A stretch of 38,159 bases of DNA, taken from positions 1 to 38,159 of the IMG/VR virus record IMGVR_UViG_3300045988_123528; one strand, 5' to 3'. Below, piece by piece: positions 1 to 38,159 of the stretch (positions are counted from its first letter, which is position 1; each line of letters begins with the position of its first letter). The translations under genes were made by a program, and so were the position numbers. The notes under the pieces were generated by a model, which worked only from the letters and a program-made list of their open reading frames with translations, was not told the origin of the DNA and ran no database searches. Origin of the DNA: a virus (lineage: Duplodnaviria; Heunggongvirae; Uroviricota; Caudoviricetes).

Positions 1-42
1 AATGTGAATTTTCCCTATAGCATGGAAGTTTTTACATAAAAG

Positions 43-69
43 AACCCAATATTGATTGGGTTCTTTTTT
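43..69 (+). terminator. Rho-independent terminator of an upstream host gene
   Basis: Hairpin GAACCCAAT / ATTGGGTTC followed by a T-run. Confidence 0.5.
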
Positions 70-361
70 CTCTATCAGTGCTATTAGCAGGGAGAGATAT
101 CACCGTAGTTTAATGTGTGATTTTTATTTATCGTCGAACCTGGATTGTTTATCATTGGCCTTAACAAAGCTAACGGCTAATAAGATTATTTCCATCACTT
201 CGTGAGAGCTTCATGCCTTGAGAGGATCTCAATTTTCTTTTGCAATGAGACAGGCGCTTCCTGTTGTTATGGTATAGTACCCCGCTATTGAGCCTCCTGA
301 ACAGTGATGCTGAATAACATAACCCCATGATATATCGATAAAATAATCTCTACATTTGAAA

Positions 362-484
362 ATGCACGGTAATTCTGAAATGCAAAAAATCAACCAAACC
401 AGCGCAATGCCTGAAAAAACTGACGTTCACTGGAGTGGTCGGTTTAGCGTTGCACCAATGCTCGATAGGATGTACCGTTTTTGA
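362..484 (+). pseudogene. dusA: Displaced original 5' end of dusA, truncated by prophage insertion
   Basis: Reads MHGNSEMQKINQTSAMPEKTDVHWSGRFSVAPMLD then unrelated residues and a stop; about 80% nt identity to the intact dusA start at 38009. Confidence 0.6.
439..465. repeat. attL core region (segment shared with attR, ends in ATGCTCGA)
   Basis: TCGGTTTAGC and ATGCTCGA are identical in both dusA 5' copies; sequence diverges into phage DNA immediately after. Confidence 0.5.
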
Positions 485-505
485 AAAACAACTAGTTATA
501 CACTT

Positions 506-530
506 TGTGGGAGCCTATTGGGAACCTGTT
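506..530. repeat. Putative integrase arm-type binding sites (GGGA[GA]CC motifs) next to attL
   Basis: TGTGGGAGCC and TGGGAACCTGT; the 11-mer TGGGAACCTGT recurs near attR at about 37956. Confidence 0.35.
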
Positions 531-719
531 ATTCTTAGAAAGCATCATTTGCTCATCACTTCAATTGACCATGGTTAAAGCCAGCTATAAACTTGACAAA
601 CGAGGTAACTGGTTGCTTAGGCCCAAGTGGGCACACCATAAGAAGCTCGTGTTGGTGATGAAGCAACCCATGAAGTATCGAGAATAATTATAAAGTTCAC
701 TATCTTTGAGGTTTCTTAT

Positions 720-1292
720 ATGTTTTGCGAAGAAAAAGTAGCTCAAATGGCTGCATACCTACTTCTTAAGCGAGGTGGGCGCATGGCATATCTGAAATTG
801 ATGAAGTTGCTCTATCTGTCTAACCGCCAGTCGATTTTGAAGCATGGCAGGATGATCGGCGAAGATAGCCTTTACTCTATGAAATTTGGACCAGTCATGT
901 CGAATACGCTGAACTTGATTCGCGGTAAGGCTGAAGGCATTGGTGACTACTGGTACAACTTGATAGAGACGAACGGGCATAATGTATCGTTGCGTTCAGA
1001 TCCGAGGGAAATGGATGCAGACGAGGTCTTTGATGAATTGAGTCGTGCAGATATCCGGATTTTAGATGAAATCTATTCTCGGTATGGGCATATGAACCGA
1101 TTTGATCTCGCAAATATGACGCATTTAGAAAGCGTTTGTCCAGAGTGGCACGATCCTGGCAATTCTCGTAAGCCTATAGACCTGAAAGAAATGCTGATCA
1201 GTGAGGGTAAAAGCGAGGATGAGGCTAATCGCATAATTGGCAAAATGGAAGAATCTCAGAAACTTAAGGAATTTTCTTTGCAATTATCATGA
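720..1292 (+). CDS. Panacea-domain (DUF4065, SocA/PanA-like) protein, putative antitoxin
   Basis: 190 aa; KLMKLLYL and MKFGPV motifs recognised as the Panacea pattern; SD GAGG upstream; stop overlaps next start (ATGA). Confidence 0.55.
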   Translation: MFCEEKVAQMAAYLLLKRGGRMAYLKLMKLLYLSNRQSILKHGRMIGEDSLYSMKFGPVMSNTLNLIRGKAEGIGDYWYNLIETNGHNVSLRSDPREMDADEVFDELSRADIRILDEIYSRYGHMNRFDLANMTHLESVCPEWHDPGNSRKPIDLKEMLISEGKSEDEANRIIGKMEESQKLKEFSLQLS

Positions 1293-1708
1293 CGGATTAT
1301 CAGCCATACAGGAAAGGAACTGTGCTTGCCCCAACTGGGCCATGCAATCATCTTCATGTGATTTGTAATGATCCTGTTTATTACCCCGTTAACGATTGTT
1401 ATTGTGTTTTAGTTGTTAATATTTCTAGTATCAAGGATGGTGTCCCCCACGATCCGTCTTGCGTCTTGAATTCTGGTGATCATCGCTTTATCAAGCATCC
1501 AAGTTATGTTGTTTACGCTGAAGCTATAATTTGGCGAGTGGATAACATGGTTAGAAAGCAGCGATCGGGTGAGATTTCTGTTCATGATGATATGCCAGAA
1601 GCTACATTCAATAGAATTCTGGACGGTTTTGATATCTCTGATGAAGTTACGCCAAAGAACCTTAAATTTAAAAATAAATATTGCGTATCATCTATTGATG
1701 ATGAGTAA
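1289..1708 (+). CDS. Hypothetical protein, candidate toxin partner of the Panacea protein
   Basis: 139 aa, translationally coupled by ATGA overlap; residue pattern loosely reminiscent of a MazF/PemK-type fold (inference only). Confidence 0.4.
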   Translation: MTDYQPYRKGTVLAPTGPCNHLHVICNDPVYYPVNDCYCVLVVNISSIKDGVPHDPSCVLNSGDHRFIKHPSYVVYAEAIIWRVDNMVRKQRSGEISVHDDMPEATFNRILDGFDISDEVTPKNLKFKNKYCVSSIDDE

Positions 1709-1747
1709 ACAACAGGAATTGTTTCGGTATAACTTCAGGAGTTTTCT

Positions 1748-1921
1748 ATGGAAGATCAAAAAGCAACCAAGCCACAGGTTAAGTTCGACACAATGAAAGC
1801 ATTCGCAGGTATGGGTGCTGCTGTTGAAGTTCTGATGAAGGCTGCTCCTAATGCGTTCACTCACGCTACTGTCTCTGGTAAAGAGCAGCAGGGTAAGCTT
1901 CGTCGTCGCAAAGCAGCATGA
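1748..1921 (+). CDS. Small hypothetical protein (57 aa), basic C-terminus
   Basis: Strong SD CAGGAG 7 nt upstream of ATG; followed by a terminator; below the ORF-track size cutoff. Confidence 0.35.
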   Translation: MEDQKATKPQVKFDTMKAFAGMGAAVEVLMKAAPNAFTHATVSGKEQQGKLRRRKAA

Positions 1922-1941
1922 TCATAGCTGGTGCTTTTTGA

Positions 1942-1967
1942 AAACCCGCCTTTAGGCGGGTTTTTTA
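1942..1967. terminator. Bidirectional intrinsic terminator
   Basis: CCCGCC TTTA GGCGGG hairpin flanked by A-run and T-run, between convergent genes. Confidence 0.7.
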
Positions 1968-1968
1968 T

Positions 1969-2250
1969 TTAGTGATGTTCTTTGCCCTTCTGTTTGCTTG
2001 TTCTGACCTGTTCCCACTCGATACGTCCTTCTTCTCGTCTTTTGTCTATGTATTCCGCAAGATCCTGAATATTGATGCAACGTTTTGCTTTTTGTGATGT
2101 GCCGATGCGATATGTTGGAACGGGCAACTTACAAGCGTTTGCTTTTGCTTCTGCCGTGGCTGGACTCATGCCAAAGTACTTTTGGCTAACTGCTGAGAGT
2201 TCAATGTTAGGGGTATTGAATTCAGCCATCAGTAAAAACAAGGTGTTCAT
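1969..2250 (-). CDS. PrtN/excisionase-like small DNA-binding protein
   Basis: MNTLFLLMAEF...YFGMSPATA...LPVP start typical of the PrtN-like family; SD GGAG before this ATG; track ORF extends to a GTG at 2277. Confidence 0.5.
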   Translation of the reverse strand: MNTLFLLMAEFNTPNIELSAVSQKYFGMSPATAEAKANACKLPVPTYRIGTSQKAKRCINIQDLAEYIDKRREEGRIEWEQVRTSKQKGKEHH

Positions 2251-2286
2251 AATTTTCTCCATCAAAACCGGCTGCACCCGGGAAAA

Positions 2287-2862
2287 TCATAATTCTGTGC
2301 TGGTGGCAGGAATTAATTTCTGCCAGATAGCGGAAACATATTTTGCCTGATGACGGGCATCAGCCAGGGCGTTGTGCCGTTCGCCATCGAAAGGCATGTC
2401 CATTTTGGGGTCGAATCCGATGGAACGCCCAAGCGTAACGATCGTGCGTACATCGTGGTCATTCCAGTATGCCCACGGGCAGATTTGTCCTGCTCGCTCA
2501 TAAGCTCCACGTAAAATTACGTTGTCGAAGGTGGCTCCGTTACCCCAGACTTTTAAATATTTCGTATTGTCTGCGTGCCGGTTAATGAAATGATTTAGTT
2601 CTGAGAGAGCATCGCTGATCGACAAAGTATCATCAATACAGATTGCAGCTCGTGCTTCAGGGCTTTGTTTCAACCACCACAGGATGGTATCGCCGTCAGG
2701 TGTAGCTCCTTGCCCCATAGCACTTTCCAGGCTAACAACCGTATAGAATTCTTGTCCGATGTCTCCGGTTTCTGGAGTGAAGAACACCGCGCCAATGGAA
2801 ACGATCGGTGCATCCTTATTTTTCCCCATCGTCTCAAGGTCGATCATTAAGTTGTTCATCAC
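2287..2862 (-). CDS. Phage 3'-5' exonuclease (DnaQ-like)
   Basis: 191 aa; N-terminal MIDLETMG exonuclease motif. Confidence 0.75.
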   Translation of the reverse strand: MMNNLMIDLETMGKNKDAPIVSIGAVFFTPETGDIGQEFYTVVSLESAMGQGATPDGDTILWWLKQSPEARAAICIDDTLSISDALSELNHFINRHADNTKYLKVWGNGATFDNVILRGAYERAGQICPWAYWNDHDVRTIVTLGRSIGFDPKMDMPFDGERHNALADARHQAKYVSAIWQKLIPATSTEL

Positions 2863-3668
2863 TTCACCTCTTGTGATGGTTTTGCTGCAAAATACTCGAT
2901 ACCTTTATCCCAGATAGATTTTATGGTCGACCACGTGACTGGCACTTTAATTTCAATACGTCCGCTCCCGTCACAGGTATCGCAATCATCATCGCCAAAG
3001 CATTCCAGGCAGCTTATAAACGTAGTTTCTGAAAATTCACCGGATAGCGCCCCCTTAGCGCCGTTCTCGGCTGTTAGTCTCTTCGGCACCATAACCCAAC
3101 CATCCGGAGTTACCGGAGAGTTGCCAGACAGTGCGTTCTGCAATCGTTCCAGCTTAACGTATTCCTGAACCCTGTTTCCGTCGCACGCCTGAAGCCATTG
3201 CACAGCCTTTTGCGCATCAGTGTGAAAGGCACAAGTGCGACCGTCATCAAATTGCATTTCGTAGAGGTCAGCAACCTGTTTAAACTGCGTTTGTGGCAAC
3301 TTGTAAGCCTGGCTTGCAGGTACGGCACCATAGAGCATGGCAGCGCGGCAGGCGTTCCAGCCTTCATCAAAACCGACTATGCCATTATTTAAAGACGGAC
3401 GAGCATCTGGCACCACCGGCACTGGCTTGGCTATATATAGCGGCTGAACATACCAGCCCTTTGATAACCAACTGTCAGCAATGTTTTTACTCCTGGTTAT
3501 TGCCGGAATACCTAAGCCATTGTCTGAATGCAGCCATGCCACCGGATCCTCTTCCAGCGATGCCAGAGCAATTTCATAAGCACGGCGCTCAACATTGTCT
3601 CGCACGTCCATGCTGCTGATTCGTTCTTTGATTTCTTTAATCAGTTCTTTATCGGTAAATGTGGTCAT
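2859..3668 (-). CDS. Hypothetical phage protein with C-terminal CxxC-x5-CxxC zinc-ribbon motif
   Basis: 269 aa ORF in operon context; CLECFGDDDCDTC near C-terminus. Confidence 0.5.
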   Translation of the reverse strand: MTTFTDKELIKEIKERISSMDVRDNVERRAYEIALASLEEDPVAWLHSDNGLGIPAITRSKNIADSWLSKGWYVQPLYIAKPVPVVPDARPSLNNGIVGFDEGWNACRAAMLYGAVPASQAYKLPQTQFKQVADLYEMQFDDGRTCAFHTDAQKAVQWLQACDGNRVQEYVKLERLQNALSGNSPVTPDGWVMVPKRLTAENGAKGALSGEFSETTFISCLECFGDDDCDTCDGSGRIEIKVPVTWSTIKSIWDKGIEYFAAKPSQEVK

Positions 3669-4030
3669 TATGCTCCAGCCTCCGGTGCTTTTGGCATTAC
3701 TGCCCAGTGAGTGATGTTGACGTTTTCAAGGTCCCCGACCTGAAATGTCCACTGCCATTCTCCGGTTTCTTTTTGCCCCCATGTATACCAGAGAGAACGC
3801 CAGCCAATCAGCCAGCCTTCTCCATTAGCATCAAATAACAGAACACTTTCATTCGCTGGCGGCAGTTCAGCTGACACTGGTATTACTTTGTTTTCCAGTG
3901 CTGCACATTTAGCTTCAAGCGCATCAAATTTACGCACCAGGTATTCAGCATCCGTTTCATTCACTTTCAGATCTCGCGGTACACATTTCCCGCGAAGAAA
4001 TCCTTCCATTTCGAAAACATTCATGCGCAT
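3668..4030 (-). CDS. Hypothetical phage protein, YfdS-like by size and position
   Basis: 120 aa, start/stop overlaps with neighbours in the leftward operon. Confidence 0.45.
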   Translation of the reverse strand: MRMNVFEMEGFLRGKCVPRDLKVNETDAEYLVRKFDALEAKCAALENKVIPVSAELPPANESVLLFDANGEGWLIGWRSLWYTWGQKETGEWQWTFQVGDLENVNITHWAVMPKAPEAGA

Positions 4031-4557
4031 TTTCGTAACTCCGATAATTCGTTAAAGCGTTCCATAAACATCCCGTAGGCATGGCCTGGAGCCAGTGGAA
4101 TCACGTTGAACATCTCTGTTGCCGGGATACCTTCCAGTACAGGCCAGAAAGAGCCATCATCAAGCCCGAGATCGCGGCGTTCGGTTGCCAGCATGATGAG
4201 ATCGGCATATTTCACGGGCGTACTCATAACTGGGGGTAACCCGTATTTCTCACGGATTACGGCGTCTATTTTTTCTTCCATTTGTTTATAGTCAGGAAGA
4301 AGGCGTTTCAGTGGTGCGGGAATGTCCTGGCAATACGCTTCTGTTGCATCATGCATTAACGCTTCAAAAGCAAATTCCTGCGGCACCAACTGGCTGCAAA
4401 GAACCGCATGTTGGGCGACGCTGTAGAAGTGCGAAAGATGACCGGCAAAGCGACAGATATTTGAAAGGGAAACCGCGATATCGTTAATATCGATGTCGTC
4501 TTTATTTATCCTGTCATAATAAAAATGCTTCCCAGAAAAAGTTTTGATAAATGACAT
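4021..4557 (-). CDS. HD-domain phosphohydrolase (YfdR-like)
   Basis: HxxxxxxxxxxxHD-type motif (HAVLCS...LMHDATEAY); start set at the internal ATG; track ORF extends to 4584. Confidence 0.65.
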   Translation of the reverse strand: MSFIKTFSGKHFYYDRINKDDIDINDIAVSLSNICRFAGHLSHFYSVAQHAVLCSQLVPQEFAFEALMHDATEAYCQDIPAPLKRLLPDYKQMEEKIDAVIREKYGLPPVMSTPVKYADLIMLATERRDLGLDDGSFWPVLEGIPATEMFNVIPLAPGHAYGMFMERFNELSELRKCA

Positions 4558-36773: not shown

Positions 36774-36825
36774 ATACTGTGTTTGTATACAGTATTATTT
36801 TTAACTGTATGGATAAACAGTGTCA
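36774..36825 (-). promoter_or_regulatory. SOS-regulated promoter with two LexA boxes
   Basis: TACTGTGTTTGTATACAGTA and AACTGTATGGATAAACAGTG (CTGT-N8-ACAG); minus-strand TTGACA-17-TAAAAT; coordinates +/-2. Confidence 0.75.
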
Positions 36826-37920
36826 AGAGGTCTTATTTCTGCTCCTTTGGAGCTCTTCAAAACGATTATGTAAAGATTTCGGATACAGTTCGGTATATAC
36901 CTGCCATAGCACGTTTAATGAACGATGCCCTGTAACCTGGGCGACTTCCTCAATACTAAAACCAGCCTCAAATAAGCGACTTGCCCCTTCTCTACGCAAA
37001 TCATGGTATCGCAGATCTTTAATACCTAATTTGCTTCTTACCCTCTGGAATCCCGCAGTAACAGAAGTGCTGTTATATGGAAAAATGAATTCTGATTTTT
37101 TGGGTTGTCGTTGGACGATATCCCAGGCTTCCCCAAGCAAGGCTACTTTCATATGGTTGCCTTCCTTTTTACGTGGATCTTTCCTGTCTCTTACGAGTAT
37201 GGATTTTTGTTCCTGATCGAGATCCTCCCATCGTAATCGGCATACTTCACCGATTCGCATACATGACCACACAGAAAATTTGAGGATATCAACGAACGGA
37301 ATTTTTGAGCATTTATGTGTAGATCGTTGTTGAAGACCTTCAATGAGCATGTCCAGTTCATCAGATGCCGGTCTACGATTACGACGATTTGATTTACCAA
37401 TTAAACCAAGTTTAAGTAGATATGGACGAGCGGCTTTTGCTGGGTTTGATGTGTAATTAATTCCATATACAGGTTTGGCAGCATCCAGAACACTACCAAG
37501 ATAACTAACATCGTGGCTAACTGTAGCTGGACCTGCACCAGCGTTGTTTCTTAGCCTGCAATGTTCAATTACGTCATTTTCTGTCAGTTCAGATAGTTTG
37601 ATCGCGGAGATGTCACTATCCATAAGCAGTTCCAGCACATATCTTTTAGTACGGCCTGCTTTACCTCCGGCATTTGGGTCATTTAAATATTTGTGTAGTA
37701 AGTCACGGACTGTAAGTCCGTCAACTGCATTTGATGATGGAATGCCATATAGATCTAATTCCATCACTTTCTGTGTGCCCCATGTTTTGGCATGAGCATG
37801 TTTAGGGAATGTTTTGCTTTCCCTGTAAGTGATAACACCTTTTTCTTTGATAATCACATTACAGCGATAGCGTGGTGTGCCATCGGATTTTAGTCGTTTC
37901 TCTATGTTATAGTACGCCAT
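36823..37920 (-). CDS. int: Tyrosine integrase (dusA-associated integrase type)
   Basis: 365 aa; catalytic R..HDLRR..H...Y motifs; adjacent to the dusA junction. Confidence 0.9.
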   Translation of the reverse strand: MAYYNIEKRLKSDGTPRYRCNVIIKEKGVITYRESKTFPKHAHAKTWGTQKVMELDLYGIPSSNAVDGLTVRDLLHKYLNDPNAGGKAGRTKRYVLELLMDSDISAIKLSELTENDVIEHCRLRNNAGAGPATVSHDVSYLGSVLDAAKPVYGINYTSNPAKAARPYLLKLGLIGKSNRRNRRPASDELDMLIEGLQQRSTHKCSKIPFVDILKFSVWSCMRIGEVCRLRWEDLDQEQKSILVRDRKDPRKKEGNHMKVALLGEAWDIVQRQPKKSEFIFPYNSTSVTAGFQRVRSKLGIKDLRYHDLRREGASRLFEAGFSIEEVAQVTGHRSLNVLWQVYTELYPKSLHNRFEELQRSRNKTS

Positions 37921-37976: not shown

Positions 37977-38008
37977 AACGCGAGAAAAATAGCCTGAAAT
38001 GTTCAAAA

Positions 38009-38159
38009 ATGCACGATAATCATGAAACACAAAAAATTAATCAAACCAGCGTGATGCCTGAAAAAACTGGTGTTTACTGGAATTCTCGGTTTAGCATTGC
38101 TCCTATGCTCGACTGGACGGACAGACATTGCCGCTATTTCTTGCGTCTGCTTTCCCGCA
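38009..38159 (+). CDS. dusA: dusA 5' end (partial; continues beyond the window), phage-supplied replacement
   Basis: [50 protein letters not shown] is the conserved DusA N-terminus. Confidence 0.8.
38086..38112. repeat. attR core region
   Basis: Same TCGGTTTAGC...ATGCTCGA segment as attL. Confidence 0.5.

Follow-up and report, generated by a model that had tools for sequence, protein, structure and literature searches.

A predicted PanA-PanT toxin-antitoxin pair of PanT cluster T6 as cargo of a dusA-integrating Escherichia coli prophage

The window, that is, the whole stretch of 38,159 nucleotides that was analysed, contains a whole lambdoid prophage inserted in dusA. The first 2,400 bases (1-2400) are 100% identical to the E. 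coli chromosome (strain WP4-S18-ESBL-09 and others; NZ_AP022098). Close to the left prophage end lie two overlapping genes, here named panA (ORF1) and panT (ORF2). The features of the locus are as follows:

359-475, + strand: left prophage boundary, formed by the original 5′ end of dusA and including the attL crossover region (its translation is that of the DusA N-terminus, and the annotation reads partial tRNA-dihydrouridine synthase)
529-719, + strand: cassette-specific upstream region, beginning where homology to related dusA phages stops (~527)
720-1292, + strand: panA (ORF1), 190 aa, ATG start, Panacea (DUF4065) antitoxin by domain
1289-1708, + strand: panT (ORF2), 139 aa, ATG start, predicted toxin of MazF/Kid-like fold, placed by homology in PanT cluster T6
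1748-1921, + strand: orf57, 57 aa, small conserved phage-backbone gene (phrog_2741, E 8e-36)
1940-1965, + strand: intrinsic terminator closing the rightward panA-panT-orf57 unit (11-bp stem with 6 G-C pairs, followed by a T-run)
38006-38122, + strand: right prophage boundary at attR, a copy of the 5′ end of dusA carried by the phage (direct repeat whose alignment continues into the authentic dusA)

The two dusA segments (359-475 and 38006-38122) form a direct repeat of 117 nt with 81% identity, and the integrase ORF (36823-37920, minus strand) adjoins the copy at attR. The repeat and the adjacent integrase gene therefore set the extent of the prophage from about 466 to 38,100, a length of ~37.6 kb. 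Since the phage carries its own 5′ end of dusA, integration rebuilds the gene at attR, and the truncated original 5′ end is left behind at attL. Near-identical relatives of the prophage are the Escherichia phages SKA5 and Lys8385Vzw. The start of panA is located ~250 bp inside attL, and the gene pair lies between attL and the downstream xis, a PrtN-family gene, and exo. In a preliminary description of this DNA, the pair had been placed just inside attL and outside the core phage modules, and both placements are borne out by the repeat and by the point at which the relatives diverge.

Homology to the related dusA phages is lost at ~527 and resumes at 1735 in the case of mEp460, or at ~1998 in the cases of PhiR40_1 and 1720a-02. 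Each of these phages carries different genes in the corresponding interval. In detail, mEp460 has a 177-aa ORF of unassigned function (1755-2288 of the retrieved stretch), PhiR40_1 and PhiR55_1 have a 179-aa ORF together with an ORF carrying a YafO-toxin domain (Pfam E 2e-21; 222-1212 of the PhiR40_1 stretch), and 1720a-02 has a membrane-like 182-aa ORF (906-1454 of the retrieved stretch). The interval between attP and xis in this lineage of dusA phages is thus a variable cargo slot in which TA-like modules are swapped.

Further downstream, orf57 and the strong terminator at 1940-1965 belong to the phage backbone. The gene orf57, which has a good Shine-Dalgarno sequence, is probably cotranscribed with panA and panT. 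As a third component of the module it was rejected, because it is present in mEp460, which has no PanAT pair, and does not follow the pair in other phages and plasmids. A search of window positions 1-2600 against Rfam gave nothing above the gathering scores, and the sub-threshold matches at 1940-1965 were terminator-like only. Upstream of panA, the sole promoter-like site is TTGACC-17-TAAACT (565-593), in a sequence where the count of such sites is no higher than expected by chance. The palindrome TTGACCATGGTTAA (565-578) overlaps the −35-like hexamer of this site. A comparison of diverged cassettes revealed no shared operator or promoter upstream of panA, and neither the palindrome nor the 529-719 region was conserved.

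Both the ORF list and the raw sequence show that the two genes share the tetranucleotide ATGA (1289-1292) on the + strand, exactly as it had been read at the outset. In comparisons with homologues of 70-76% identity, dN is ~0.2 and dS is saturated for both ORFs, and dN/dS is at most 0.11 wherever it could be computed. Low dN combined with saturated dS indicates, at the sequence level, that both ORFs are under strong purifying selection and therefore that they are genuine genes and did not arise by chance. The same homologues keep the TCATGA junction. The RefSeq/PGAP annotation starts ORF2 at GTG 1322, resulting in a protein of 128 aa (WP_014640052.1). Because residues 1-11 (MTxYxPYRKGT) as well as the ATGA junction are conserved across homologues, ATG 1289 is probably the better start of ORF2 and the RefSeq start is probably wrong.

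The product of panA is a Panacea protein, as had been proposed. Its residues 27-137 match positions 1-109 of the 113 of Pfam PF13274 (SocA_Panacea) with 70.9 bits against a cut-off of 25.7 (E 2.2e-19), and PGAP names it "Panacea domain-containing protein." The GPV motif, which is reported as critical for neutralisation (PMC8832971), is located at G57-P58-V59 and is invariant in 14 diverse paired homologues. The protein consists of a single Panacea core (~27-137) and a helical-looking C-terminal extension of ~50 aa. PanA of C. doosanense carries Phd-C helices (PMC10440598), and by comparison we infer that PanT may be neutralised either through the Panacea core or through the extension. As a SocA equivalog (NCBIfam NF047745) PanA remains below threshold, with 14.4 bits against a cut-off of 190, and a search against PDB sequences gave no match.

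The pairing of the two genes is strict. In 29 of the 29 loci with upstream sequence, the gene immediately preceding the ORF2 homologue encodes PanA and is on the same strand; the Pseudomonas chromosome loci among them were chosen through PanA and are not independent. Phages, plasmids, and chromosomes of Alpha-, Gamma-, and Epsilonproteobacteria are represented. The phage loci belong to Escherichia, Yersinia, Klebsiella, Vibrio, and Pseudomonas phages and one Helicobacter prophage, the plasmid loci to Acinetobacter, Endozoicomonas, and Acetobacter, and the remaining loci are Pseudomonas chromosomes and IMG/VR contigs. The pair behaves as a mobile two-gene cassette, because its position varies among phage genomes (near int, near the terminase, or beside tail-fibre genes).

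Several observations were made on individual copies. In Proteus and Providencia, copies of the pair adjoin a tail-fibre gene (1-221 and 938-1908 of one prophage stretch), and an Abi_2 (abortive infection) gene neighbours the pair in one genome. Phage PhiR5_2 has an orphan PanA homologue (40% identity; 2028-2552 of the stretch) which adjoins ibrA/ibrB and has no downstream T6 partner. Many provirus predictions of IMG/VR start exactly at the start codon of panT or at panA, which means that automated prophage boundaries cut through the cassette.

Among 5,426 complete E. coli genomes, the cassette is found in 208 (~4%), including O103, O121, and APEC strains. It is chromosomal in all of them and full-length in 206. 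One truncated copy was examined, that of E. coli AR_0089, in which IS903B is inserted within panT, ~150 nt into the gene, and panA is intact (3250-4218 of the retrieved stretch). A broken panT next to an intact panA is in the direction expected if panT is harmful, as far as this one copy goes.

The partner family of these antitoxins has already been described. Kurata et al. (2022, PNAS; PMC8832971) gave DUF4065 the name Panacea, demonstrated 88 clusters of putative toxins as partners of PanA antitoxins, validated nine PanAT pairs, and classed such pairs as type II. One validated pair is that of Pseudomonas moraviensis, whose toxin is in cluster T6 and was predicted by HHpred to be EndoA/PemK/MazF-like. 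This PanT is toxic in E. coli and is rescued by its PanA, the two proteins are pulled down together as a complex, and the toxin selectively inhibits the incorporation of 35S-methionine, that is, protein synthesis (PMC8832971). The T6 pairs in Dataset S1 of the same work come from Proteus, Pluralibacter, Pantoea, Photorhabdus, Halomonas, and many others, P. reinekei being also listed, with overlaps of −4 or −1.

The published primers give the termini of the P. moraviensis proteins: MPGNIL and IRQNNF for the N- and C-terminus of PanT, and MIFSEQKVAQ for the N-terminus of PanA (PMC8832971), the corresponding end of the window PanA being MFCEEKVAQ. A genome scan for the PanA N-terminus with an ATG start gave nothing. 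Without the start codon, a degenerate DNA scan of one genome per species for IFSEQKVAQ found six Pseudomonas loci, including P. reinekei; the scan worked in this form because the starts there are GTG or TTG. In five of the six loci, a complete ORF of 132-133 aa follows panA with an overlap of 1 nt, and the P. reinekei locus, which is outside these five, ends with the retrieved stretch. Two of the five ORFs start with MPGNIL, and one of those two ends with LRQNGF. Close Pseudomonas relatives thus served as proxies, the P. moraviensis genome not being among the scan matches. The P. atacamensis PanT begins with MPGNIL, identical to the primer-derived N-terminus of P. moraviensis PanT.

The window PanT is 43% identical to that of P. 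atacamensis (E 4e-32), and the window PanA is 43% identical to its PanA (E 5e-49). Proteus and Pantoea proteins are also among the homologues of the window PanT, and the Proteus loci have PanA and a 4-nt overlap. On this homology ORF2 is assigned to PanT cluster T6, because it is related to the validated Pseudomonas group and shares Proteus and Pantoea homologues with the T6 table. The earlier proposal that the downstream protein is the toxin gains support from this relationship, at the level of homology. The statement that it has no nameable family stands only in part: Pfam, NCBIfam, and PADLOC gave no named family for ORF2, but the protein does belong, by the above relationship, to a published cluster. 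Membership in the non-toxic cluster T1 was considered and rejected, as tblastn gave no match in Salmonella phage Emek. No paper in the literature that was searched mentions WP_000458584, WP_014640052, or phrog_19071; the NetFlax supplements contain none of the searched accessions, and neither DUF4065 nor Panacea is named in the E. coli pangenome defence screen.

The sole family match of ORF2 is phrog_19071, whose function is unassigned. With a profile built from 24 homologues, the family comprises at least 2,671 clusters at 50% identity (E ≤ 0.001). An AlphaFold model of ORF2, made on the alignment of homologues, has a pLDDT of 89.3 and a pTM of 0.83 and consists of a beta-barrel followed by three helices. 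The best 35 Foldseek matches of this model are all toxins of the MazF family, and the best viral structural matches are "PemK-like" proteins. PanT is thus predicted to have the SH3-like beta-barrel toxin fold of the CcdB/MazF superfamily, and the loose guess of a MazF/PemK-type fold, made beforehand from the residue pattern, agrees with the model.

At the sequence level the relationship is far more distant. The window PanT does not match Pfam PemK_toxin (PF02452) at E ≤ 1, and the same HMM matches only 2 of the 129 members of the PanT family, weakly (best E 0.011). Against PDB sequences, the family profile gave chance-level matches only. The alignment of the PanT family with single MazF or Kid sequences, or with an alignment of five sequences, by hhalign was not significant (E 0.035-0.19). 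When the 129-sequence family was compared with a MazF/PemK alignment of 41 sequences (five sequences plus IMG/VR homologues), a match over 110 columns was obtained with E 0.001 and a weak probability of 21%. This same weak alignment places H21 of PanT on R29 of MazF and S/T46 on T52, which we take to be the two catalytic positions of E. coli MazF. Relative to MazF, the Thr position would be kept as S/T46, and the Arg position would be occupied by the invariant His21.

Besides H21 and S/T46-47, residues L22, D55, C58, G63, H65, F67, S72, Y76, G113, and S117 are found in at least 90% of the members of the family. His21, Asp55, Cys58, and His65 are retained in 126-128 of 129 diverse members, and the last three of them are without a counterpart in MazF. 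The pattern of these four residues resembles a metal-binding or catalytic set. As the Arg of MazF is not conserved and D55, C58, and H65 lack equivalents there, the chemistry of PanT may differ from that of MazF.

From the above, the pair is best read as a two-gene type II PanA-PanT module which forms an exchangeable cargo of a dusA-integrating lambdoid prophage, PanT being a predicted blocker of translation and PanA its inactivating binding partner. We assign to this reading a probability of roughly 0.8. In a lysogen, PanA and PanT would be produced from a single transcript, terminated at 1940-1965, with the translation of panT coupled to that of panA via the ATGA overlap. By analogy to the P. 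moraviensis pair, PanA would bind PanT directly and hold it inactive, and free PanT would arrest growth through a block of translation. PanT would most probably be a metal-independent endoribonuclease acting at the position of the MazF active site, with His21 and Ser/Thr46. The pay-off would probably be a lysogen defence of the abortive-infection type, the retention of the prophage, or both. The RNase chemistry, the catalytic residues, and the mode of neutralisation by PanA are what we infer for the window pair; the toxicity in E. coli, the inhibition of protein synthesis, and the complex with PanA are known for the P. moraviensis homologue and would apply here by analogy. For the defence module that had been offered at the outset as an alternative, the support is contextual: only the position in the cargo slot and the general knowledge of toxin-antitoxin systems suggest a role in defence or addiction. 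Searched against the defence models of PADLOC-DB 2.0, the products of panA, panT, and orf57 gave no family at E ≤ 1.

Alternatively, PanT may be a toxin controlled by PanA and yet not a MazF-type RNase, the barrel having a different active site; this is unlikely, even though the conserved residues without a MazF equivalent speak for it. In one variant, His21, Asp55, Cys58, and His65 would form a metal site or a catalytic centre of the Cys-His-Asp type, and in another the protein would act stoichiometrically on a component of the translation machinery, as CcdB acts on gyrase. Similarly, there is a modest chance, slightly greater though still well on the doubtful side, that the T6 PanT family forms a catalytic branch of its own within the MazF fold, with a new active or metal site and a different target or chemistry, and that the E. 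coli pair might also be a prophage abortive-infection sensor-effector, in which the Panacea protein senses an incoming phage.

It is quite improbable that the pair is no working TA in E. coli, with ORF2 either non-toxic or serving another conserved phage function and PanA being its sensor or regulator. Pairing with PanA is not by itself a proof of toxicity, since 8 of the 25 tested partners were non-toxic in E. coli, including the cluster T1 pairs of an E. coli prophage and of Salmonella phage Emek (PMC8832971), and orphan PanA genes such as that of PhiR5_2 occur. However, the window protein falls in T6 and not in T1, and the T6 member that was tested is toxic in E. coli itself (PMC8832971). 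The best structural matches of ORF2 are toxins, the pairing is strict with a conserved start/stop overlap, and in the sole disrupted copy examined it is the toxin gene that is broken and panA that is intact. Least probable of all, and very much so, is a type VI arrangement in which PanA would be an adaptor delivering the toxin to degradation by ClpXP, as SocA of Caulobacter does for SocB. SocA is the founding Panacea-domain protein, after which the Pfam domain is named, and according to Kurata et al. (PMC8832971) the two modes need not exclude each other. Against it, PanA is far from the SocA equivalog cut-off, PanT has a predicted MazF fold and is unrelated to SocB, which is the toxin of cluster T10, and for the P. 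moraviensis homologues a stable complex was seen in pull-downs, within a class described as type II (PMC8832971).

The preferred PanA-PanT reading can be set beside the known systems. The closest is the P. moraviensis pair (PMC8832971), which shares the two-gene order, the single-domain PanA upstream, and the start/stop overlap; both window proteins are homologous to it, as judged from the 43% identity of each to the near-identical P. atacamensis pair, and the two PanT proteins have in common a predicted MazF/PemK-like fold. The two pairs differ in context, that of P. moraviensis being a chromosomal "NotPhage" locus and that of the window being carried by an E. coli dusA-integrating lambdoid prophage. 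They also differ in the overlap, which is ATGA in the window and 1 nt in the P. moraviensis type, and in PanT itself, whose N-terminus is somewhat longer in the window and which carries there C26, at a position occupied by Met in the Pseudomonas proteins.

In comparison with MazEF and Kis-Kid (PemIK), the window PanT is outside PF02452, with a sequence identity of 7-17%. The catalytic Arg29 of MazF would correspond to the invariant His in the PanT family, and unlike MazF and Kid the family has an extra conserved loop (residues 48-66) with D55, C58, and H65. In place of the DNA-binding antitoxin of the MazE/Kis type (AbrB-like), the window pair has a Panacea protein. With SocAB, the type VI TA of Caulobacter crescentus, the antitoxin shares the Pfam domain SocA_Panacea, but PanA is not an orthologue of SocA, the toxin is not related to SocB, and direct binding rather than ClpXP-mediated degradation is expected. 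The placement of the pair between attP and xis is the same as in the "moron" or cargo slots next to the attachment site of lambdoid prophages. Such slots carry TA and defence genes, whereas the cargo of the window matches no PADLOC model.

The kind of system to which the PanA-PanT pair belongs was known before. Its partner family has been described, with one member validated by experiment; new are the predicted pair itself and its carrier, an E. coli prophage. A protein annotated in RefSeq as hypothetical is now placed in a published, experimentally validated toxin family, and the dusA-integrating lambdoid phages are seen to have a cargo slot beside attP that exchanges TA-like modules. For a MazF-fold family without a Pfam model, H21, S/T46-47, D55, C58, and H65 provide a short list of conserved residues on which work on the mechanism can draw. 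The residual interest lies in the active site of this very large MazF-fold family and in the role that the pair may have in prophage defence.
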